From the NCBI GenBank assembly GCA_934254835.1, contig CAKQMI010000001.1:14588-78587 (forward strand): 64,000 nt of DNA. The letters run 5' to 3'. The notes under the pieces were generated by a model. It saw only the letters and a program-made list of their open reading frames with translations, ran no database searches and was not told the DNA's origin. Shown one piece after another: positions 8,999 to 25,052 of the stretch. The first letter of the stretch is position 1. Every line of letters begins with the position of its first letter. The position numbers and the translations under genes were made by a program. This DNA is from an uncultured Clostridia bacterium. GTDB lineage: Bacteria; Bacillota; Clostridia; Christensenellales; CAG-917.

Positions 8999-9139
8999 TT
9001 AGTTGTGCGGGGCAAGTCTTGCTCTGCCTTTGTTGCGACGACGTTTCAATACGTTGCGTCCTTGCTTGGTTTGCATTCTTTTCCTGAAACCGTGTACCTT
9101 GGTTACGTGTCTTTTCTTGGGTTGGAATGTCCTTTTCAT
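8999..9139 (-). CDS. rpmH: 50S ribosomal protein L34
   Basis: [49 protein letters not shown] at 9139 follows AAGGAGG. The ORF-track start at 9193 is too far upstream. Confidence 0.95.
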
Positions 9140-9202
9140 ATATGCCTCCTTAATAGGGATTATTTCTTCACTATTGTTATTATAATATAACAATGCCAGT
9201 CA

Positions 9203-9231
9203 ATTATAAGTAAATTTCCCCTCGGTGTCAA
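9203..9231 (-). promoter_or_regulatory. Putative sigma-A promoter of rpmH operon
   Basis: On the minus strand, TTGACA (9231-9226), a 17-nt spacer, then TATAAT (9208-9203). Confidence 0.5.
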
Positions 9232-9587
9232 CCGATTTGACGACTTTAAGGAAATGACGGCGTTAAGTTTTTTTGTGTTTATTTGATATATAATCAGACC
9301 TTGCTTTTCGATTTTCGGTTTTTCTTGCGCCTTTCGTGCAAGCATTGTGAATGCCACCCGAGAATGTTTCCAACTGTCTTCGCCCGCGTTTTTGTCAAAA
9401 GCCTTGTTGCACTCTCGGCAAAAACGCAAAGTATTAGACCGTTCGCGCGCCAAGTTTTCGCCATAAACCGCACGGCAACGCTCTCTCAACCCGTTTCTTT
9501 TATGATTTTTGAAAAGACGAGTGCGGTTGATATTTTTGTACAAAATGACCTTATCAAAAAGCAAGAATATCAGCGTTTTAAAAAAAC

Positions 9588-10080: not shown

Positions 10081-10525
10081 AATCCCTCCTTTTGTCAGAA
10101 AAAAACCCCTCCGAAATTAACTTTGTCGCACTTTACTTCTGAAAAAGCAAATATTCCGCTTTTAATCTTTTGAGGCCTTGAATTTTTCCAAGCAGTAACT
10201 CTGAAACTAAAAATTAACAGGCAAAAAAATAAACAAAAGATTTTATTTATTAAATTATATCATCTACTCTCTCCATTGTCAATATTTGTTCTTTTTCCGG
10301 TTTTTTCCTAAATCGAGCAAACGGGTTTTTTCTCCCTCGTATATCGAACTGCTCCGCCAATAATCAAACCACAAATCTCGCCTTTTCTTTTCGTTTCTCG
10401 TTTTTGTTCACCCAACAGTAACCCTGTCCAAATAACTCTGTCACAGAATCTTAAACGTAGTTGCCCTTCAAAAAACCGTCGCAAAATCGTTGAACCTTGC
10501 GAAACCATTCTTCCCGACAGACTAT

Positions 10526-10541
10526 CGTTTCACGCGAAACA
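10526..10541. promoter_or_regulatory. parS-like site 1
   Basis: CGTTTCACGCGAAACA matches the Bacillota parS consensus TGTTNCACGTGAAACA at 14 of 16 positions. Confidence 0.5.
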
Positions 10542-10773
10542 ATGGCTTTTTGCGCGCAAAAACCATTTACTAAAATCAACAATACCGCGCCGTCACCCCT
10601 TGTCAATGAGCCTAATCGGAACACAACATGCTCCACATGCATTCAGTCACAAGGTAATCATGGCTACAAAACGGAAAACCGCCGAACCGTTCAACAACTC
10701 GAAAGAATAAACAATGTCTCCGCCAAAAGGAACTATCCTCATCAACAACTCGGATAAATTTGTCGGACAAACA

Positions 10774-10797
10774 ATGCCAACCGTGAATAATACGAAC
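10774..10797. repeat. Conserved 24-mer ATGCCAACCGTGAATAATACGAAC, copy X
   Basis: Identical to 11907-11930 and to the reverse complement of 12161-12184, while the flanks are strongly diverged. Confidence 0.9.
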
Positions 10798-11075
10798 TGT
10801 ACTAATCCGAAACAACCTCTCTTTTGCAGTCAGACAGAACGAAAATATTAAAAATTGACGCCCCGTAAGCACGGGCGCATAATTTAACAACTAAACCACC
10901 ATACCATGAACATTAAACACGCAAGCCGACATTCGCACCCGAAACAATCCGTAATATACTTTTTGCTTTATTATACAACTATTTGTGGCACCACAAACAT
11001 TGCACATCCACATTGCCAAACTCACCCGCAATAGTTTTGCTTAAACAAAGCATTTTCTCTTCCATTCTTGTCATT

Positions 11076-11096
11076 GCACGCGAGCGGGTTAATACT
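11076..11096. repeat. Conserved 21-mer GCACGCGAGCGGGTTAATACT, copy W
   Basis: Identical to the reverse complement of 11989-12009. About 65 nt of weaker similarity follows in both copies. Confidence 0.9.
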
Positions 11097-11906
11097 CTAT
11101 TCCTAAGCCATAAGCGCAACAACAACTTTGTCAAAAATACAACGTCGGATCTGCGTGACCAAATCGTCAATAATTTTGACTATTTTTGAAAAAAGCAACC
11201 ACCACTACACTTGTCGTACAGAGGCGAATTTTTGCAAAACACGGATATTGCGACAATTTGGCAATGTTCATATTATCCTTGTCCGATAATAAAAACCCTA
11301 TTGTTTTTGCCTAACGAAATTATCACAAATTAAAAACAGGAACGCTGTTAAAGCAAGCAACTAATTCACTGAGAGTTTTGAAAAAAGTCTCAAATCTTTC
11401 TTTCGGAACCCTTTTTAATTTGAAAACCAAATACGACGTTACAAATAACCGAAAATATTAACCGGTCGCACATGTTCTATTTATAAAAGCATTCCTAACC
11501 GCATAAAAAAGAAACCTCCAAAAACCCCGTCTATTTTGGTAATAACAAGCTAAAACACGGCTATAAATCTTTTGCGCCACACAACACAGGAAATAACAAG
11601 GAAAGTATTCTCGAAGTCACGATATAACCATACTCGCATAATATTCTGTCTCTCACCAACCAATGTGCCCAATTTTCCCGATCTTTGAAAATTCGCCACT
11701 TGAAACACAGTAACAAGCAATTAACAAAAACATAATAAACAAACATATAAACGTCACTCAAATCCGCCAAAACCACGCTGACAAATTAAAAATCGGACAA
11801 ATACAATGATATATCGTTTCAAGAAAAGGCCAAACAAGGGCAAAACCATTACAAAAACATCAAATTTATTCAACGGGGCACGAATTTGATTTTTTATTTT
11901 TATAAT

Positions 11907-12184
11907 ATGCCAACCGTGAATAATACGAACCGTGGTCTTGCTCCGTGTTTTTGACCAAAACCTCGTTGCGCTCACGGCTTATACATACAGTATTAACCCG
12001 CTCGCGTGCCTTGTTTTCGTCTAAAAACGCGGGGGCAATACTCCTTAGACCAAACCACCGAGAATTTCGATGATTTTTGGGAAAAATGAACGCAGTTGTA
12101 CTTTTGGTACTACAAGCGAGTTTTTGCAAAAAAGCACGGAAATATCGGCGATTTCTAACAGTTCGTATTATTCACGGTTGGCAT
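11907..12184. repeat. 278-bp inverted-repeat element with perfect 24-bp termini (MITE-like or long-hairpin locus)
   Basis: The termini at 11907-11930 and 12161-12184 are exact reverse complements. The subterminal ~90 nt of both halves are recognisably related (CAAAAACACGGA next to the 24-mer). No ORF and no obvious target-site duplication. Confidence 0.6.
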
Positions 12185-12474
12185 GCAACGGCTATTCAAA
12201 CGGCGAGAAAAACATAATAAACCAAAGAAACACCCGCTTTACTATATTTTTCTCGCTATTGCAACATAAACAAATTATCAAACACAACCAATCGAAAAAT
12301 AGAACGTAAACAAGATTTTCAAAAAGCACGTTGACAGGCAATTCTTTTTTTTCAATAATATGTTAAATATACATAAACCCTGTCAACATAAAACATTCTT
12401 TGAGGTCGATTATCTCAAATATGACGTTTCTATCCGTTGACATTATGTAGATTTTCTGGGAAAAGAGCAAAAAG

Positions 12475-12483
12475 ATATCCACA
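12475..12483. promoter_or_regulatory. DnaA box-like 9-mer (1 mismatch)
   Basis: ATATCCACA versus consensus TTATCCACA. Confidence 0.45.
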
Positions 12484-12497
12484 ATGTTACTATCGAA

Positions 12498-12513
12498 CGT
12501 TTCACGTGAAACA
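12498..12513. promoter_or_regulatory. parS-like site 2
   Basis: CGTTTCACGTGAAACA matches the parS consensus at 15 of 16 positions. Confidence 0.65.
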
Positions 12514-12564
12514 ACGATGATTTTACGCTATTTTTGCTTGTCTAAAAATTGTTCCGTTTTCATA

Positions 12565-12580
12565 TGTTTCACGCGGAACA
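12565..12580. promoter_or_regulatory. parS-like site 3
   Basis: TGTTTCACGCGGAACA matches TGTTTCACGTGGAACA at 15 of 16 positions. Confidence 0.65.
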
Positions 12581-12585
12581 AAAAG

Positions 12586-12594
12586 TTGTCCACA
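12586..12594. promoter_or_regulatory. DnaA box-like 9-mer (1 mismatch)
   Basis: TTGTCCACA, sandwiched between parS-like sites 3 and 4. Confidence 0.45.
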
Positions 12595-12596
12595 AT

Positions 12597-12612
12597 TGTT
12601 CCACGCGGAACA
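12597..12612. promoter_or_regulatory. parS-like site 4
   Basis: TGTTCCACGCGGAACA matches at 14 of 16 positions. Confidence 0.5.
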
Positions 12613-12736
12613 AAACGGTGCTTTTTGGCGGGTTTTTGGGCGTTTTTCCTTGGTTTTAAGCGGTTTATTGCGGTTTGTTTGCGGTGAATTACGGCATTTT
12701 CGTTTCTTTCTCCGTGTAAAATTGGCATACCGCTTT

Positions 12737-12745
12737 TGTGGATAA
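12737..12745. promoter_or_regulatory. DnaA box (perfect consensus, reverse orientation)
   Basis: TGTGGATAA is the reverse complement of TTATCCACA. Confidence 0.6.
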
Positions 12746-12829
12746 CTTTTGCTATTTTTTGGACAAGTATAATCATCGTGCTTTGTGGCAATAATATAAG
12801 CAATTTATTAAGGAAAATGGTGGTTTTTT

Positions 12830-12976
12830 ATGAAATGTACGTCGTGTAATGAGGCTTTTTCGCCTGATAAAATGTTTGTTTGTAAGTCTTGTGGCGCTTG
12901 TTTTTGTGAAAACTGTGTGAAAAACAACGATAATTCTTGTTTGAAATGCGGTACCGTGCTTGACAGATTTAACTAA
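12830..12976 (+). CDS. Hypothetical 48-aa Cys-rich (zinc-ribbon-like) small protein
   Basis: Own ORF, below the track size cutoff: MKCTSCNEAFSPDKMFVCKSCGACFCENCVKNNDNSCLKCGTVLDRFN, with four CxxC pairs. GGTGG lies 6 nt upstream. Caveat: the G/T-rich strand inflates TGT/TGC codons. Confidence 0.3.
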   Translation: MKCTSCNEAFSPDKMFVCKSCGACFCENCVKNNDNSCLKCGTVLDRFN

Positions 12977-13004
12977 ATGCGCAATTTTTGCCAGCAAAAA
13001 GGCG

Positions 13005-13020
13005 TGTTTCACGTAAAACA
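13005..13020. promoter_or_regulatory. parS-like site 5
   Basis: TGTTTCACGTAAAACA matches at 15 of 16 positions. Confidence 0.6.
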
Positions 13021-13530
13021 TTGTCGTTTTTTTTGCCTTGCTTTTTTATCGGTTTTTGGTTATTTTTTCAGCAAGAAATTATTTCTTTTAGGCTCAAAAT
13101 GGCTTTTTTTTGCATATAATCGGCGACATTTGGTTTGCAACTTGTCTGCTACTGCTACAACGTTATTTCTTTGTTTTCTTGCGGGTAAATAGGCTTATTC
13201 TTGCAACGAATTTGTCTTTGTGCGCGCACGGTGAATCGCATTGTTTTCGAAACGTTATTGTTTTTCAAAAGTTGTTGGCATAACTATTGGGTTTTTGTTA
13301 AAAACAAGAAGTTCTCTGGCTTTTATGGTTTATTTTATTTTGGGAGTATTACGCTTGTCCGCCATGGGTTTTGCGATTTTTTAACTGCGACGGATTCTCT
13401 TTATGAAATAGCTTGCTTTCAACTATTTGTTATGTTGATTGTTTTTCAAAACTTGTTATGTTCGGTTACTTTGTTTGCTATTTGTTCTTTCAATTATTTT
13501 CAAAAACGATAAGGTATTTGTGTTAATTCC

Positions 13531-13556
13531 AAATAAAAACCCCGCCGTCGGCGGAG
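13531..13556 (-). terminator. Intrinsic terminator downstream of luxS
   Basis: GC stem CCGCC-GTC-GGCGG followed on the minus strand by TTTTTATTT. Confidence 0.5.
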
Positions 13557-13580
13557 TAACCATTGTATATGCGCGGATAA

Positions 13581-14003: not shown

Positions 14004-14091
14004 AGTTTTGAATTTTATATATTATATAATAATATATAAAATTTTGCTCCTTGTTTTTCGTATGCTTTTTGCGTTTCTTGCGCCTTTAAGG

Positions 14092-17084: not shown

Positions 17085-17269
17085 GTTGCTTTCGCACGGC
17101 GGATTTTTGAAAATTTCGGAATTTCCCTATCCTAAAAAACCCTTTTTCGACTTATTTTTTGAATGTTCCACAAAAAAATAATGTTTCACAAATTTTTGTA
17201 AATCGTTGATTATTCGCCTCTTTAATGCTATACTTAAATAAAATAAAAACAAAATTAAGAGGTGTTTTT

Positions 17270-18154
17270 ATGTCAAACAAAGGTATTGGAAAAGGTCTTG
17301 CGGCGTTGCTCGGCAACATGCAGGAAGAAGAAGCGGTGGCGGAAAAACTCGATTCGACCGTCTCTCGCGAGATAATGAACGTCGATATTTCCCTTATCGA
17401 CACCAACCCTTATCAACCGCGAAAAATCTTTGACAAATCGGCACTTGAGGAGTTGGCGGCGTCCATAAAGTCGTTCGGCATTATTCAACCGCTGATCGTT
17501 TTGAGAAGCGGAAACCGTTACGTCATAATCGCGGGCGAAAGGCGTTTCCGTGCGGCGCGTCTTGCGGGATTGACGTCGGTACCTTGCGTCGTCAGGGAAC
17601 TCACCCCTCGTGAAATGCGAGAAATCGCCCTTATAGAAAACCTTCAGCGCGAGGATTTGAACCCCGTCGAGGCGGCAGAGGGCATAGCCGAACTTATAAA
17701 GTCTTACAACCTCACCCAAGAAGAAGCGGCGGAGCGTATCGGTATGGGCAGACCTACCGTCACGAATTTACTGCGTCTTTTATCGCTTGACAAAGAGGTG
17801 TTGGAACTTGTGCGCGCCGGCAGACTTTCGGGAAGTCATGCAAGGTGCTTGGTGGTTGTCACCGATCCCGAAGTGCAGGTTTATTACGCCAACAAAGCGT
17901 GCGACAACAAAATGTCCGTCAGAGATTTGGAACAACAAATCCAACTTTACCTCGGACGCAAACTTATCCCCGCGGGCGTCAGAAAAGAAAAACAATCGAA
18001 GGAACTCAAAACCTTTGTCAACGATATGAAACGCATCTTCGGCACAAAGGTCAAAATTTTGGGCAACGACGAAAAAGGTCGTATCTGCATCGATTATTTC
18101 TCCAACGACGATTTACAACGTATTTATGACTTAATCGATAGTTTACGCCACTGA
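17270..18154 (+). CDS. parB: ParB/Spo0J (or Noc) family partition protein
   Basis: ATG at 17270 follows AAGAGGTG. It shows GKGLAALLG, NPYQPRK, ParB box IIAGERRFRAA and an HTH. No parA/soj gene is adjacent. Confidence 0.9.
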   Translation: MSNKGIGKGLAALLGNMQEEEAVAEKLDSTVSREIMNVDISLIDTNPYQPRKIFDKSALEELAASIKSFGIIQPLIVLRSGNRYVIIAGERRFRAARLAGLTSVPCVVRELTPREMREIALIENLQREDLNPVEAAEGIAELIKSYNLTQEEAAERIGMGRPTVTNLLRLLSLDKEVLELVRAGRLSGSHARCLVVVTDPEVQVYYANKACDNKMSVRDLEQQIQLYLGRKLIPAGVRKEKQSKELKTFVNDMKRIFGTKVKILGNDEKGRICIDYFSNDDLQRIYDLIDSLRH

Positions 18155-18738: not shown

Positions 18739-19848
18739 TTAGTTTATAATGCGCACGGGCAAAATAAGGTAAAGATATTCGTCCGCTTTCTTTTCAGTGG
18801 GGACGATGACGCCGGGCGCGGTGGACGTCGTAAAGCAAAGTTTGACAAAGTCGTCGCTTATCGCGCGGAGGCTGTCCGAAAGGTATCTTGCGTTAAATCC
18901 GATGTTAAGGTCGTGTCCCAAAAGGTCGATTGCGACGATTTCGTTGATCCCGCTGATTTCGCTCTCGGCGGAAATGGACATTTTCTTTTCGCGGATTTCA
19001 AGTTTTACGACGCTCTTCTTTTCGGTGCGGGTTGCAAGCGACGCACGGTCGATTGCGGTGTCAAACGCCTTTTTATCGACAAACACGGTCGTTGTGAAGT
19101 CGGTGGGAATAATCTTGTTGTAGTTGATATATTCGCCCTCGATAAGCCTTGTGACGATTTTGGTATTGCCGAGGTCAACCATAAAGTAGTTTTTCTCGAT
19201 ACTGACTTTTACGTTTTCGTCGCTGTCGTCAAGAAGTTTTGAAATTTCGCTCATACTTCTTGCGGGGACGATAATTTTTATATCCGCTCCGCCGTACTCG
19301 ATTTCCTTTTTGCAATAAGCAAGGCGATATCCGTCCGACGCGACGCCTATAATCTTATTGTCCGAAATTTCGATACTGCAACCTTTGAGGGTGGGGCGAT
19401 TGTCTTCGTTTGCCGTGCAGAAAATAATTTTTTCGATAAGGTTTTTTAGTTCCTTTTTTACGATATAAAAAGAATTTTCGTCGTTGACGTTTTTGAACAC
19501 GGGGTACTCGTCGGCTTCCATCGTCTGGATATAACCGCTGTTTTCGCCGTATGTAAGCTTAAGCGTTGTTTCGTTCGTCGTGTCGATAATGACGTCTTCC
19601 TTATCGATTTTTCGGACGTATTCGGTAAAGTACTTTCCGAGAATAACCGTTTCGCCGTCGATGAAGATATCGGCGTTGATTTTTTTCTCGATCGAAAGTT
19701 CCAAATCGGTTGCGGTGAGTGTCAACGTATTGTTTTCCGCCTTAAGTTTTATGCCGTTAAGAATGGGCATAACTTTCTTAAGAGGAAGCGCTTTCCCGAC
19801 CTGTGTTAATGCATCGGATAATTCAAGGCTGTCGCAAGAGAGTTTCAT
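18739..19848 (-). CDS. dnaN: DNA polymerase III beta sliding clamp
   Basis: 369 aa, three-domain clamp-like sequence immediately downstream of dnaA. Confidence 0.95.
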   Translation of the reverse strand: MKLSCDSLELSDALTQVGKALPLKKVMPILNGIKLKAENNTLTLTATDLELSIEKKINADIFIDGETVILGKYFTEYVRKIDKEDVIIDTTNETTLKLTYGENSGYIQTMEADEYPVFKNVNDENSFYIVKKELKNLIEKIIFCTANEDNRPTLKGCSIEISDNKIIGVASDGYRLAYCKKEIEYGGADIKIIVPARSMSEISKLLDDSDENVKVSIEKNYFMVDLGNTKIVTRLIEGEYINYNKIIPTDFTTTVFVDKKAFDTAIDRASLATRTEKKSVVKLEIREKKMSISAESEISGINEIVAIDLLGHDLNIGFNARYLSDSLRAISDDFVKLCFTTSTAPGVIVPTEKKADEYLYLILPVRIIN

Positions 19849-20040
19849 CGGTTTCTCCTTATATTTATATTGTTTTATATTTCTTTGATAATGATTTTGT
19901 TAATAAGGCTTGTGGAAAAGTTGAAGTTGAACGTTTCGCACAAAATATAGACAAAACCAAAATTTAAGAGACAATATAGTGTGGTTTTTAATGTTAATAA
20001 CTTTGTTTACAACTTTTTTTAATTATAAACATATCTACAA

Positions 20041-21408
20041 TCAGCGTTTATATAACATGTCTTTTATGTCGTTGATTTGTATTTTCAGTTTTTGAGCAGA
20101 CGCGTTATTGGACGAAAGGGCGTCGGTGATTTTATCGCGCGAGTGAATAATAGTCGCGTGGTCGCGCCCGCCGAAAATACTGCCGATTGACACGAGAGGC
20201 ACCGACAACATATCGCAAATAAGATAAATAGCGACCATTCTCGGCTCGACAAATTCCTTGTTTTTCTTTTTGCCGATGACGTCGTTTTCGGACACGCCGA
20301 AGTATTTGCACGTCGTTGAAAGAACGTCGTAGGCGTCGAAATGCTCCTTTTTAGTCTCGATATACCCGGAGAGCGCCTCTTTCGCAATGGCAAGCGACGC
20401 GGGTTGACCTGAAAGTTGAGTGTAAAACATAACTTTGTTCAAAAGCCCTTCGAGGTCGCGGATATTGTTTTCCATATTACTTGCGATAAAAGACGCGACT
20501 TCGTCCGACAAAAAGAAGTTTTCGGCGTCGGCTTTCTTTTTCAAAATCGCGATTCTCGTTTCGATGTCGGGCGGTTGAATGTCGGCAAGCAGTCCCCACT
20601 GGAAACGCGTCCTCAGCCTTTCTTCAAGCGGGGCGATTTCCTTTGGCGGACGGTCGGACGAGATGATGATGTGTTTGTCGTTTTGATAAAGGTCGTTGAA
20701 GGTGTGGAACAACGCTTCTTGCGTGCCTTGTTTTGAGGCGATAAACTGAATATCGTCAATCATCAAAACGTCGACAGAGCGGTATTTTTCACGGAAAGCA
20801 ACGCTGGTTTTGGAGTCTCTGATAGACTCGACATAGTCGGCGATATACTTGTCCGTCGTGATGTACATAATGCGTTTTTTAGGAAATTTTGCGTTGATAT
20901 AATTTCCTATCGCGTGCATAAGGTGAGTTTTTCCAAGCCCGACACCGCCGTAAATAAACAGGGGATTGAAGCGTCCGCCGGGGTGCTCGGACACGGCTTG
21001 CGCGGCGGCAAAAGCAATCTCGTTGGACTTCCCGACGACAAAGTTGGAAAAGGTATATTTTTTATTGAAAGAAAACCCGGTGTCGTCGGCTTTTTCAACC
21101 TTTTTCACGACAAGTTCGTCACCCAAAGTATAGTCTTGTTGTTTCAAGCAGTCGGCTTTTTCCGACTCGATAATAATCTTGACGTCGGAGATAATTGGGT
21201 TGACTTCTTTCACCGCTTCCAAGATGGTGTCGCGGTAATTTTTGACGATGGTGTTTTTGCTACTTTGACTGCCCGATTGCAGTACGAGAGTGTGACCGAT
21301 AAAACATATCGGTTCCAACTTTTCAATCCAGACCTCATAGCTTATCGCCTGCAGTCTTGCGGACAATTTAATTTTGGTGTCGTTCCAAAGGGTATTGATG
21401 TCGATCAT
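20041..21408 (-). CDS. dnaA: Chromosomal replication initiator DnaA
   Basis: 455 aa with Walker A GGVGLGKTHL, box VII, and the C-terminal DNA-binding motif GGRDHATIIHS. Confidence 0.97.
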   Translation of the reverse strand: MIDINTLWNDTKIKLSARLQAISYEVWIEKLEPICFIGHTLVLQSGSQSSKNTIVKNYRDTILEAVKEVNPIISDVKIIIESEKADCLKQQDYTLGDELVVKKVEKADDTGFSFNKKYTFSNFVVGKSNEIAFAAAQAVSEHPGGRFNPLFIYGGVGLGKTHLMHAIGNYINAKFPKKRIMYITTDKYIADYVESIRDSKTSVAFREKYRSVDVLMIDDIQFIASKQGTQEALFHTFNDLYQNDKHIIISSDRPPKEIAPLEERLRTRFQWGLLADIQPPDIETRIAILKKKADAENFFLSDEVASFIASNMENNIRDLEGLLNKVMFYTQLSGQPASLAIAKEALSGYIETKKEHFDAYDVLSTTCKYFGVSENDVIGKKKNKEFVEPRMVAIYLICDMLSVPLVSIGSIFGGRDHATIIHSRDKITDALSSNNASAQKLKIQINDIKDMLYKR

Positions 21409-21504
21409 AATAATTATATGATACCATTATTAATCAAAAAAAACAAACAAAATGATAGTATAATATAAAAATAAGAAAGATTTATTTATAAGAAAAAACC
21501 GCCG

Positions 21505-22608
21505 TTATTTCAGCGGTTTTTCAGTGATTGTGCCGTTCTTCACACAATAGAGTTTTGACAAATTCAGGGGTTTAACATCAAATTCCGTACATGTAATCAC
21601 CGTTTGCGTGCGGTTGGCAAGTTCGATGAGTTTTTCGCGACGAGCAACGTCCAGCTCGCTCAAAACGTCGTCCAAAAGTAAAATCGGGGCTTCGCCCGTT
21701 TCGTTTTTGAAAAGCGACAACTCGGCAATTTTTATTGAAAGCGACACGCTTCTTTGTTGTCCTTGCGACGCAAATTTTCTGGCATCCACGTCGTTCAAAA
21801 CGATTTTTATATCGTCGCGGTGAGGTCCTTGCGTGGTGTACATAAGGGCGCGGTCGCGCTCCACCGACGACGAAAATGCCGATAAAAGATTGTTGAATAT
21901 TTCGTCGTAAGTTTCGCCTTTTATCGAACATTCGTAGTTAAGCGACAGTGTTTCTTTGCCGTCGGAAAGCTCGAAGTGAGAGTCCTTTGCGAGGGTTGAA
22001 AGTTTTTTGACGTAGTTTTTTCTGGCAAGTATCAAATTCGCGCCGACTTCCGCCATTCCGGCGTCCCAAATGGAAAGCAAAGACGGCAGATTTTCGTTGC
22101 GGTTTTCGTTTTTCAAAAGGGTGTTGCGCTGTTGCAAAATCTTGTTGTATTTTGCAAGGGATTTGAAGTAAGTTTTCGATTGTTGCGACAATGAAATGTC
22201 CAAAAAACGCCGTCTTTCGTCGGGGCCCGCCTTGACAAATCGCATTTCGTCGGGCGAAAAATAAACGACGTTGACGATGCCGATAAGTTCCGACAGCCTT
22301 TTCACGGGCAAATTGTCGATTTTTATTTTTTTCGCGCCTTTGTTTTCGATGACGAGCTCGATGACGTGCGTGCGGTATTTTTTGGCGATTTCCGCCTTGA
22401 TATAAGCGCGCTCCATAGAAAAGGAAATAAGCTCCTTTTCACGGCTTGTACGGGGGGATTTTCCGAGTCCCAACAAATAAATCGCCTCAAGCATATTCGT
22501 TTTTCCGCTCGCGTTTTCGCCCGACAGCACGTTGATGCCTTGCCCGAACGTAACGGACGCCGACGAATAGTTTCTGAAATTTTTGAGTTGAAGCGACTTG
22601 ATAAACAT
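21505..22608 (-). CDS. recF: DNA replication and repair protein RecF
   Basis: The start MFIKSLQLKNFRNY is at 22608. It shows Walker A GENASGKTN, signature SQGQQRS and Walker B LLLDDV. Confidence 0.93.
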   Translation of the reverse strand: MFIKSLQLKNFRNYSSASVTFGQGINVLSGENASGKTNMLEAIYLLGLGKSPRTSREKELISFSMERAYIKAEIAKKYRTHVIELVIENKGAKKIKIDNLPVKRLSELIGIVNVVYFSPDEMRFVKAGPDERRRFLDISLSQQSKTYFKSLAKYNKILQQRNTLLKNENRNENLPSLLSIWDAGMAEVGANLILARKNYVKKLSTLAKDSHFELSDGKETLSLNYECSIKGETYDEIFNNLLSAFSSSVERDRALMYTTQGPHRDDIKIVLNDVDARKFASQGQQRSVSLSIKIAELSLFKNETGEAPILLLDDVLSELDVARREKLIELANRTQTVITCTEFDVKPLNLSKLYCVKNGTITEKPLK

Positions 22609-22897
22609 ACGATTATTATACCATAACAAAAAATAAAGTAAAAGGAATTGAGAAAATTTACCTCAAAACAAAAAATAAAACGAAAAACCCGCTGTGCAGG
22701 GCATACAAGCGCACAAAAAAATGACCGTACAAGTCCACGGAGATTAAAAAACCGCCGTCGTAGCCCCCAAAATCCCCCTGAAAAGGACAAATTATTAAAA
22801 ATTAGCAAAAAACGGTTTGCATATTATTGATAATATGTTATACTTAATGTACTTATTATTTTATGCGTGCGCACGCATAGCGTACGCGAGAGGGATT

Positions 22898-25052
<2,155 letters not shown>

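Follow-up and report, generated by a model that had tools for sequence, protein, structure and literature searches.

The window analysed here, a 64-kb stretch of contig CAKQMI010000001.1 from an uncultured Christensenellaceae-like bacterium, contains a gene-free domain whose core, at ~12.45–13.02 kb, is proposed to be the functional chromosomal replication origin (oriC) of this organism, a reading to which we assign a probability of roughly 0.75. All evidence comes from sequence analysis of uncultured organisms; the motif content of the core, the conservation of its motifs, its synteny and the polarity of the surrounding skew are direct observations. A preliminary description of this DNA had placed a candidate oriC about 7 kb from dnaA, and that placement is now supported by a DnaA-box cluster, phylogenetic footprints, coding-only skew and synteny. 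The core carries sequence-level features of an oriC that could be tested, and would appear to work like an ordinary DnaA-dependent oriC. Separation of the origin from dnaA is familiar from other phyla, Escherichia coli being one example; here the candidate lies in a Bacillota lineage, fused with a parS centromere and embedded in a hyper-skewed, hypervariable spacer.

Several related sequences were available for comparison. L010 is a closed 1.53-Mb metagenome-assembled genome (CP091734.1, segment 585710–606816; DnaN 95% identical to that of the window), in which the core lies, by arithmetic, at ~602.6–602.9 kb. L011, “Christensenellaceae bacterium Phil10”, has a DnaN identity of 89% to the window, and the distant relative L013 one of 55%, while L017 is a canonical relative that keeps the dnaA-dnaN arrangement with five boxes in the spacer. 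The window, L003, L004, L010 and L011 make up the five-way core alignment. L140, L142 and L145 are independent contigs or assemblies of the window’s own strain; three independent assemblies reproduce the arrangement of the window, one of them with 100% identity across 12 kb.

DnaA boxes and parS sites in the core

The domain and the elements of its core are, in order of position (with a strand where one is assigned):

10081–13580: gene-free domain of ~3.5 kb between an SdpI-like gene/rpmH and luxS (open reading frame (ORF) list, Pfam)
12344–12378: AT-rich tract, candidate unwinding element, overlapped by two facing promoter-like sites
12475–12483, plus strand: DnaA box 1, ATATCCACA, one mismatch (motif scan)
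12498–12513: parS 1, CGTTTCACGTGAAACA, invariant in all five aligned sequences
12565–12580: parS 2, TGTTTCACGCGGAACA, perfect consensus in L010 and L011
12586–12594, plus strand: DnaA box 2, TTGTCCACA, one mismatch (motif scan)
12597–12612: parS 3, TGTTCCACGCGGAACA (motif scan and five-way alignment)
12605–12735, plus strand: G/T-rich segment between boxes 1–2 and box 3, T-tracts phased at ~10.75 bp; repeat family D1
12704–12719, plus strand: invariant 16-mer TTCTTTCTCCGTGTAA, constantly 17 nt before box 3
12737–12745, minus strand: DnaA box 3, perfect TTATCCACA, the only perfect DnaA box in the window (motif scan)
12830–12976, plus strand: 48-aa ORF with a four-CxxC zinc ribbon (RING-like, cross-brace), between box 3 and parS 4, protein sequence conserved in L010 and L011
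13005–13020: parS 4, TGTTTCACGTAAAACA, invariant in the five-way alignment

The motif scan confirmed the perfect DnaA box and the two one-mismatch boxes of the preliminary description. All three fall within 271 intergenic bp, and at least three boxes with at most one mismatch per 300 bp were obtained in 1 of 200 first-order Markov simulations; an intergenic DnaA-box cluster, as would be expected of an oriC, can thus be recognized. Boxes 1 and 2 point rightward and box 3 leftward, facing the other two. Matches to the 16-bp palindrome TGTTNCACGTGAAACA with at most two mismatches number five in 64 kb, all of them within the domain. The parS-like sites reported earlier are therefore real, but their count, given as three, has to be raised to four in the core (starting at 12498, 12565, 12597 and 13005), with a fifth, outlying site in the left arm (10526–10541, CGTTTCACGCGAAACA, two mismatches). 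Box 2 is wedged between two of these palindromes, 5 bp past parS 2 and 2 bp ahead of parS 3, in a layout common to three species.

The T-tract phasing of the G/T-rich segment (Fourier power 3.69; 95th percentile of shuffles 1.20) is also visible in L010 and L011, and these ~130 bp are predicted to be intrinsically bent. The 48-aa zinc-ribbon gene is the sole conserved ORF of the domain; it gave only sub-threshold matches to the Pfam families zf-RING_5 and Prok-RING and no match in NCBIfam. Gene calls in L140, L142 and L145 leave the domain empty as well, and neither Rfam, at gathering and permissive thresholds, nor a tRNA scan returned a credible structured RNA or tRNA within it.

Between species only 12308–13055 of the domain can be aligned. 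The conserved islands of the five-way alignment are the three DnaA boxes, the four parS sites, the 16-mer, a TATAAT and the small ORF. Columns belonging to the motifs (three boxes, four core parS sites and the 16-mer) are identical to the window at 95% in L010 and 90% in L011, the other non-coding columns at 58% and 51%; the boxes and parS sites are phylogenetic footprints. Box 1 is unchanged in L003, L004 and L010, and box 2 is a perfect TTATCCACA in L010. All three boxes of L011 read TTATCAACA, which is the pattern expected of sites read by one protein. No change in DnaA domain IV that is specific to L011 was found to account for this variant. T435 of E. coli DnaA is listed as a base-specific contact to the DnaA box (PMC7561715); within DnaA residues 415–422 (RDHATIIH; gene part 20044–21408), the equivalent residue of the window is an alanine, as in L105 and L011, and L012 and L017 have a threonine there. 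The distribution of the alanine does not match that of the TTATCAACA variant. When metagenomes were scanned with the 16-mer, 26 further cores with identical motif spacing were obtained, every one of them in the context rnpA–domain–luxS, and most of the matches listed in that scan did not show the core motif arrangement.

Strand-composition switch

The 60-nt base counts from which the preliminary description had deduced an abrupt strand-composition switch are exact (A34 C12 T10 G4 from 11701, T22 G18 C11 A9 from 12601, T27 G15 C10 A8 from 12661). Calculated base by base, cumulative G−C reaches its minimum at 12604, and the minimum of cumulative keto excess within the domain lies at 12395. The ten most negative GC-skew 500-bp segments of the 64 kb all start at 10.0–11.4 kb and the eight most keto-rich ones at 12.4–13.2 kb. 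The polarity of the change, from minus to plus, is of the origin type and not of the terminus type.

It had been considered that this switch might be confined to non-coding DNA. This holds for its extreme part only, as a weaker switch of the same sign is found in the flanking coding sequence. With 10090–13540 masked, cumulative G−C of what is left, chiefly coding sequence, drops to −240 at 10.1 kb, is level up to 16.3 kb and reaches +473 at 64 kb. Two-segment fits to the masked 64 kb gave sums of squared errors of 0.520–0.529 for a break at 9.5–16.5 kb, 0.576 at 20 kb, 0.59 at 21.5–23 kb and 0.630 without a break. A 79-kb composite, made with identical contigs that lengthen the left side by 8.5 kb and the right side by 6.5 kb, keeps the V shape, with its best breaks at 14–16.5 kb (0.674, versus 0.734 at 20 kb). 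Taken gene by gene, GC skew amounts to −0.051 for the left side (n = 11) and +0.044 for the right side (n = 37; Mann–Whitney p = 1e-4). Since minus-strand genes (+0.042) and plus-strand genes (+0.045) on the right are equally skewed, this is not an effect of gene orientation. A minus-to-plus skew switch of the kind expected at an oriC is thus present in 64–79 kb of sequence with the domain masked, and in two relatives in addition.

Gene neighbourhood

The genes that frame the candidate origin place it next to one border of the classical Firmicute origin and at a distance from the other. The features relevant here are:

8999–9139, minus strand: rpmH (L34), first of the rpmH-rnpA-yidD-yidC-jag-mnmE-mnmG array, the classical left border of oriC
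17225–18154, plus strand: parB, directly after rsmG; TIGR00180, 181 bits (cutoff 58)
18739–19848, minus strand: dnaN (Pfam)
19849–20040, minus strand: dnaA-dnaN spacer, 24% GC, with a box TTTTCCACA at 19911–19919
20041–21408, minus strand: dnaA (Pfam; NCBIfam DnaA equivalog)
21505–22629, minus strand: recF (Pfam)

To the left of the domain mnmG, mnmE, jag, yidC, yidD, rnpA, rpmH and the SdpI-like gene all lie on the minus strand. To the right follow luxS(−), pfs(−), MFS(+), rsmG(+), parB(+), a 156-aa ORF(+), dnaN(−), dnaA(−), recF(−), gyrB(+) and gyrA(+), and beyond gyrA there are housekeeping genes, mostly on the plus strand. The flip of gene orientation is thus as had been described, and three sets on the right side are on the minus strand (luxS, pfs, and dnaN-dnaA-recF). 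Origin indicator genes within 15 kb comprise rpmH, rnpA, yidD, yidC, jag, mnmE, mnmG, rsmG, parB, dnaN, dnaA, recF, gyrB and gyrA. The distance from rpmH to dnaA is 10.9 kb, with seven genes between them; from the box cluster it is 7.3 kb to the end and 8.7 kb to the start of dnaA, with six unrelated genes intervening.

The left border is the classical rpmH side of the Firmicute origin, and the locus retains the ancestral rpmH-side oriC position. The dnaA side has undergone rebuilding, with an inverted dnaA-dnaN, recF upstream of dnaA and rsmG-parB moved across to the right. The synteny rnpA–non-coding domain–luxS is found in L010, L011, the 26 metagenomic loci and the three independent assemblies of this strain, and the non-canonical order dnaN-dnaA-recF is common to the window, L010, L011 and L012.

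Gene order near the origin (18739–23144 in the window) varies in nearly every sampled lineage, dnaN←dnaA←recF being that of the window. Among the more distant relatives, L015 has recF and dnaA divergent with 38 bp between them and L016 has dnaN and dnaA convergent, and in L012 and L013 parB is flipped, so that the surroundings of the origin look like a rearrangement hotspot. In L010 (CP091734.1:585710–606816) gyrA, dnaA, rsmG, MFS, luxS, yidD and yidC are broken into frame-shifted pieces, a pattern typical of uncorrected long-read indel errors that makes the annotation of origin-near proteins in that genome unreliable.

Proposed mechanism and the dnaA-dnaN spacer

The core may descend from the rpmH-proximal half (oriC1) of an ancestral Firmicute origin and have stayed beside rpmH, while rearrangements would have separated it from dnaA by luxS-pfs-MFS-rsmG-parB and have turned around first dnaA-dnaN and later recF. 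DnaA would bind the two rightward boxes and the leftward one, which bracket the ~130 bp of putatively bent, T-tract-phased DNA; the duplex would open near the boxes and forks would depart both ways, so that the plus strand becomes C-rich on the left and G-rich on the right, coding DNA included. As four parS sites lie interspersed with the boxes, these 550 bp would double as the ParB loading site; the centromere would therefore be the first part to be duplicated, and an influence of ParB and DnaA on each other is conceivable. Binding of DnaA and ParB, the place of unwinding and the firing of the origin are here deduced from sequence features.

As regards the place of unwinding, the AT-rich tract at 12344–12378 contains 86% A+T, and only two 30-mers of the domain are less stable (dG −28.3 versus a mean of −37.6). 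The stability dip has no counterpart at this position in L010 or L011, and the promoter-like −35 elements at the tract are not kept in L010; since it is not conserved, the tract is not an established unwinding element. According to the basal unwinding rule, a box is followed by a spacer of at most 16 bp and at least three DnaA-trios (Pelliciari et al., PMC8287927). Box 1 is followed by ATG TTA CTA, that is, by three trios without a spacer, and the rule is formally satisfied there as well as after the box of the dnaA-dnaN spacer.

Several points weigh against placing the origin in the core. The skew data cover 64–79 kb of a ~1.5-Mb replicon, and the coding-only break is resolved to about ±3 kb, with the best single fit at 15 kb. 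Three boxes are a small cluster, and no conserved AT-rich unwinding element lies beside them in the window, L010 or L011. Runs of three trios occur at 7 of the 29 boxes with at most one mismatch in the window, and a rule that also holds at a quarter of near-consensus boxes is not discriminating here. With the origin in the core, transcription of dnaN, dnaA and recF would run against the rightward fork. Lastly, the dnaA-dnaN spacer offers DNA of 76% A+T and a conserved box at the place that the unwinding module occupies in the ancestral oriC2.

This last point leads to the main rival explanation, a split bipartite origin in which unwinding takes place in the spacer (19.85–20.04 kb) and the core is a displaced oriC1-type cluster and centromere that acts remotely or titrates or regulates DnaA; we consider it unlikely. 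The preliminary description had rightly picked TTTTCCACA at 19911–19919 as the best box flanking dnaA; the spacer is thus not empty, this being a conserved one-mismatch box. It lies ~70 nt upstream of the dnaN ATG, exactly where L017, with its five spacer boxes, has a perfect box, and in L011 it shows the same C-to-A change as the three core boxes. The spacer is also poor in GC (24%), and its box is followed by a 4-bp, G/C-containing AGCC and then by TTA TTA, which we take to resemble the box–spacer–trio layout of Bacillus subtilis. Given the conserved box at the ancestral position, the spacer would represent the ancestral oriC2, as a relic or as a part that is still active, or else an auxiliary module; the 96-bp region upstream of dnaA contains no box. 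In Clostridioides difficile, DNA melts at oriC2 and oriC1 is needed too (PMC7561715).

The skew data nevertheless argue against fork divergence at 19.9 kb. A skew minimum at the dnaA-dnaN spacer, which the preliminary description had named as the competing position, is not seen, and there is no flip at the dnaA flanks in the window (64–79 kb), L010 or L011. Over 13.5–19.85 kb cumulative G−C changes by +85, where simple arithmetic predicts ~+90 for the right replichore and ~−150 for the left, and the coding-only skew of this interval, which fits the right replichore, is ~4 standard errors away from the left-replichore value. In L010 and L011 the cumulative curve is still falling 2.6–4.8 kb past the spacer and turns between parB/pfs and the non-coding domain. 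Moreover, the spacer has a single good box whose trio run is no better than chance, and the 7 kb with six genes that separate it from the core would need looping out.

Centromere-like features

As expected of a centromere, parS palindromes are clustered near the candidate origin, and a gene for a probable cognate ParB of the Spo0J type, ParA being optional, lies 4.5 kb from the core. The product of parB (17225–18154) scores below the Noc cutoff (219 bits versus 315) and is thus of the Spo0J/ParB type and not Noc. No parA/soj was found in the 64-kb window, and ParB is therefore an orphan adjoining a dense parS cluster.

As with the Spo0J sites of B. subtilis, which lie within ~10 kb of oriC, the window has TGTTNCACGTGAAACA palindromes at the putative origin and a ParB/Spo0J-family gene nearby. 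In Caulobacter, parS is located 8 kb from Cori and a DnaA site lies inside parS, a precedent for DnaA binding within a centromere (PMC4468827). Unlike the centromeres of both species, the window has a DnaA box at 5 bp and 2 bp from two parS sites, an arrangement kept in three species, and no parA/soj in 64 kb. The interleaving of boxes and parS at base-pair scale suggests a direct coupling of initiation and segregation, in a genome without a parA found nearby.

Hyper-skewed, hypervariable arms

The core is flanked by two arms in which strand asymmetry is extreme:

10100–12340: left arm, plus strand A/C-rich, GC skew to −0.41 in 200-bp windows, unalignable between species
12978–13540: distal right arm, plus strand G/T-rich, GC skew +0.11, AT skew −0.31, AA/TT periodicity 11.25 bp

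The skew of the arms is ~5 times the coding value and is not found in other intergenic regions: the six others of the window (0.6–1.4 kb) have a GC skew of −0.08 to +0.05. The arm skew is therefore local, and general replication bias is ruled out as its source. A single repeated motif was likewise rejected, k-mer counts giving generic TTGTT/GTTTT richness only, as were decayed genes, because the ORFs of the arms are short and overlapping and are accounted for by an A-poor strand with few stop codons. The same mirror polarity is present in L010 and L013 (GC skew to −0.70) and, in weaker form, in L011, with arm sequences that cannot be aligned.

Within the L010-like species, identity is 97–99.7% for genes, 93–96% for third codon positions and 92–94% for the core, as opposed to ~83% with 12–15% indel columns for the left arm and 88% for the right arm. 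Arm divergence is thus ~3 times that of third codon positions, a ratio somewhat inflated by misalignment in low-complexity DNA. Rare variants in the left arm of L010-like strains, given for the plus strand, occur at 0.244 per base for G>A and 0.126 per base for C>T. The equilibrium calculated from the 12 rates has a GC skew of −0.23 and an AT skew of +0.29, close to the observed −0.26 and +0.18; this spectrum is that of the left arm only, the right arm having too few sites. Arm skew is best read as a mutational steady state, with C-to-T changes on the G/T-rich strand, and appears to be amplified locally in unconstrained DNA. The left-arm spectrum fits strand-asymmetric cytosine deamination on the G/T-rich strand, the lagging-strand template, a process that does not account for the much greater strength of the effect in the arms. 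Divergent transcription and selection are alternative possible causes.

It is tempting, if speculative, to go further and to see in the arms either a localized zone of strand-asymmetric hypermutation around the origin or selected GT-rich “launch” sequences, combined with a fused origin–centromere in which boxes and parS interdigitate; we hold this combined view only tentatively. A hypermutation zone would arise, for example, from a lagging-strand template that stays single-stranded for long during helicase loading and first priming. The arms could then serve as a readable record of strand-specific damage near an origin.

The absence of such skew from other intergenic regions, and with it of a general replication bias in the arms, also agrees with a second rival, according to which the core is a centromere and a promoter only: ParB would sit at parS, DnaA would act as a transcription factor of the zinc-ribbon gene, the skew would stem from divergent transcription or unconstrained DNA, and the real origin would lie outside the window. 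Box 3 is indeed placed ~25 nt upstream of a TATAAT (12769–12774) that precedes the conserved small zinc-ribbon ORF, facing promoter-like sites overlap the AT tract, and DnaA does regulate promoters, such as that of gidAB-parAB in Pseudomonas aeruginosa (PMC13438810). We regard this explanation as very improbable, because the composition switch extends into flanking coding DNA, independently of gene strand and with origin polarity, because all classical origin-flanking genes are found no more than 12 kb from the core, and because the −35 elements at the AT tract are not kept in L010.

Inverted-repeat element in the left arm

The left arm also contains a repeat:

11907–12184: 278-bp dispersed element with 27-nt inverted repeats (ATGCCAACCGTGAATAATACGAAC...) at 11907–11933 and 12158–12184

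A third copy of the 27-nt repeat is found at 10774–10800, and degenerate internal copies occupy 9384–9579 and 11076–11276. One repeat pair is 100% complementary (fold z-score −7.75). The interior of the element has the opposite orientation in strain L003 and in L010, and several metagenome contigs end or change partner at it. In contig L001 a terminal repeat that has diverged links the element to HypA and GltD-like genes, neither of which is in the window. Because of this divergence, the junction probably stems from another copy of the element elsewhere in the genome rather than from a true strain rearrangement. The element, ~290 bp from DnaA box 1, could be a dispersed repeat resembling miniature inverted-repeat transposable elements (MITEs) or an invertible segment, and the window contains no recombinase gene. 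The putative gene “unk134” (9160–9564) was discarded, as it overlaps a repeat copy and is not called in independent contigs.

That the composition switch arose by chance from mobile or junk DNA, with two unrelated skewed insertions or the halves of an inverted duplication abutting, could be argued from this inverted-repeat-flanked element and its degenerate copies, from the insertions and deletions of the hypervariable arms and from the assemblies that break or switch partner at the element, but the idea is scarcely credible, as the element copies have approximately zero skew and the skew resides between them, no long inverted repeat connects the two arms, the mirror polarity recurs in L010 and in L013 (55% DnaN identity) despite unalignable arms, and the present-day polymorphism spectrum reproduces the skew.

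Comparison with known origins

The rnpA-rpmH-dnaA-dnaN context has been described as conserved throughout Firmicutes (PMC4285127, PMC7561715), a rule that this clade breaks. With the bipartite oriC of Firmicutes (incAB/incC in B. subtilis, oriC1/oriC2 in C. difficile) the window shares TTATCCACA-type boxes on the origin side of rpmH, an AT-rich dnaA-dnaN spacer with a box and the same flanking housekeeping genes. Unlike in these origins, its strong cluster is 7.3–8.7 kb off dnaA, dnaA-dnaN is inverted with recF upstream of dnaA, the 96 bp upstream of dnaA are without a box, there is no clear DnaA-trio array, and according to the skew the forks diverge at the rpmH-side module rather than at dnaA-dnaN. 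The defining bipartite layout, with boxes on both sides of dnaA in rnpA-rpmH-dnaA-dnaN synteny, is thus absent. Anchoring oriC and replichore coordinates at dnaA would here err by 7–9 kb and mis-phase gene-strand and skew analyses. The locus may also be viewed as a natural experiment on the bipartite Firmicute origin, its halves being 7 kb apart and the skew placing fork divergence at the rpmH-side half.

In E. coli the distance between oriC and dnaA is 42 kb. The core resembles that origin in being parted from the initiator gene by rearrangement, in lying beside the mnmG (gidA)-side array and in forming one compact intergenic cluster. It differs in phylum and helicase-loading system from the E. 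coli oriC, whose separation from dnaA is documented (PMC8287927), and lacks its 13-mer, IHF, Fis and GATC architectures; instead, it is set in a skewed, gene-free domain of 3.5 kb and has parS sites interleaved with its boxes.

Minor observations

Perfect (12/12) sigma-70-like promoters (TTGACA-17-TATAAT) are found on the minus strand at 10254–10282, upstream of the SdpI-like gene, and at 9203–9231, upstream of rpmH. The luxS-pfs gap holds, at 14004–14050, roughly 40 bp of pure A/T with a palindromic character (ATTTTATATATTATATAATAATATATAAAA), which is kept in L010; no other 30-mer of the whole region is less stable (dG −23.6), the nearest DnaA box is 1.3 kb off, and a role in luxS regulation is probable. 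When L001 was compared with the window, the self-comparison revealed another family of short dispersed intergenic repeats (pieces of 40–117 nt, 83–96% identical) at 27.8–28.07, 29.77–29.89, 38.5–38.6 and 51.3–51.6 kb. At the left end of the window, the long plus-strand ORFs 82–1074, 1129–1479 and 1524–2054 are probably spurious; independent contigs instead call minus-strand genes within 1–2054, namely DUF1256 (1532–1984) and an FtsH gene that runs past the left window end.

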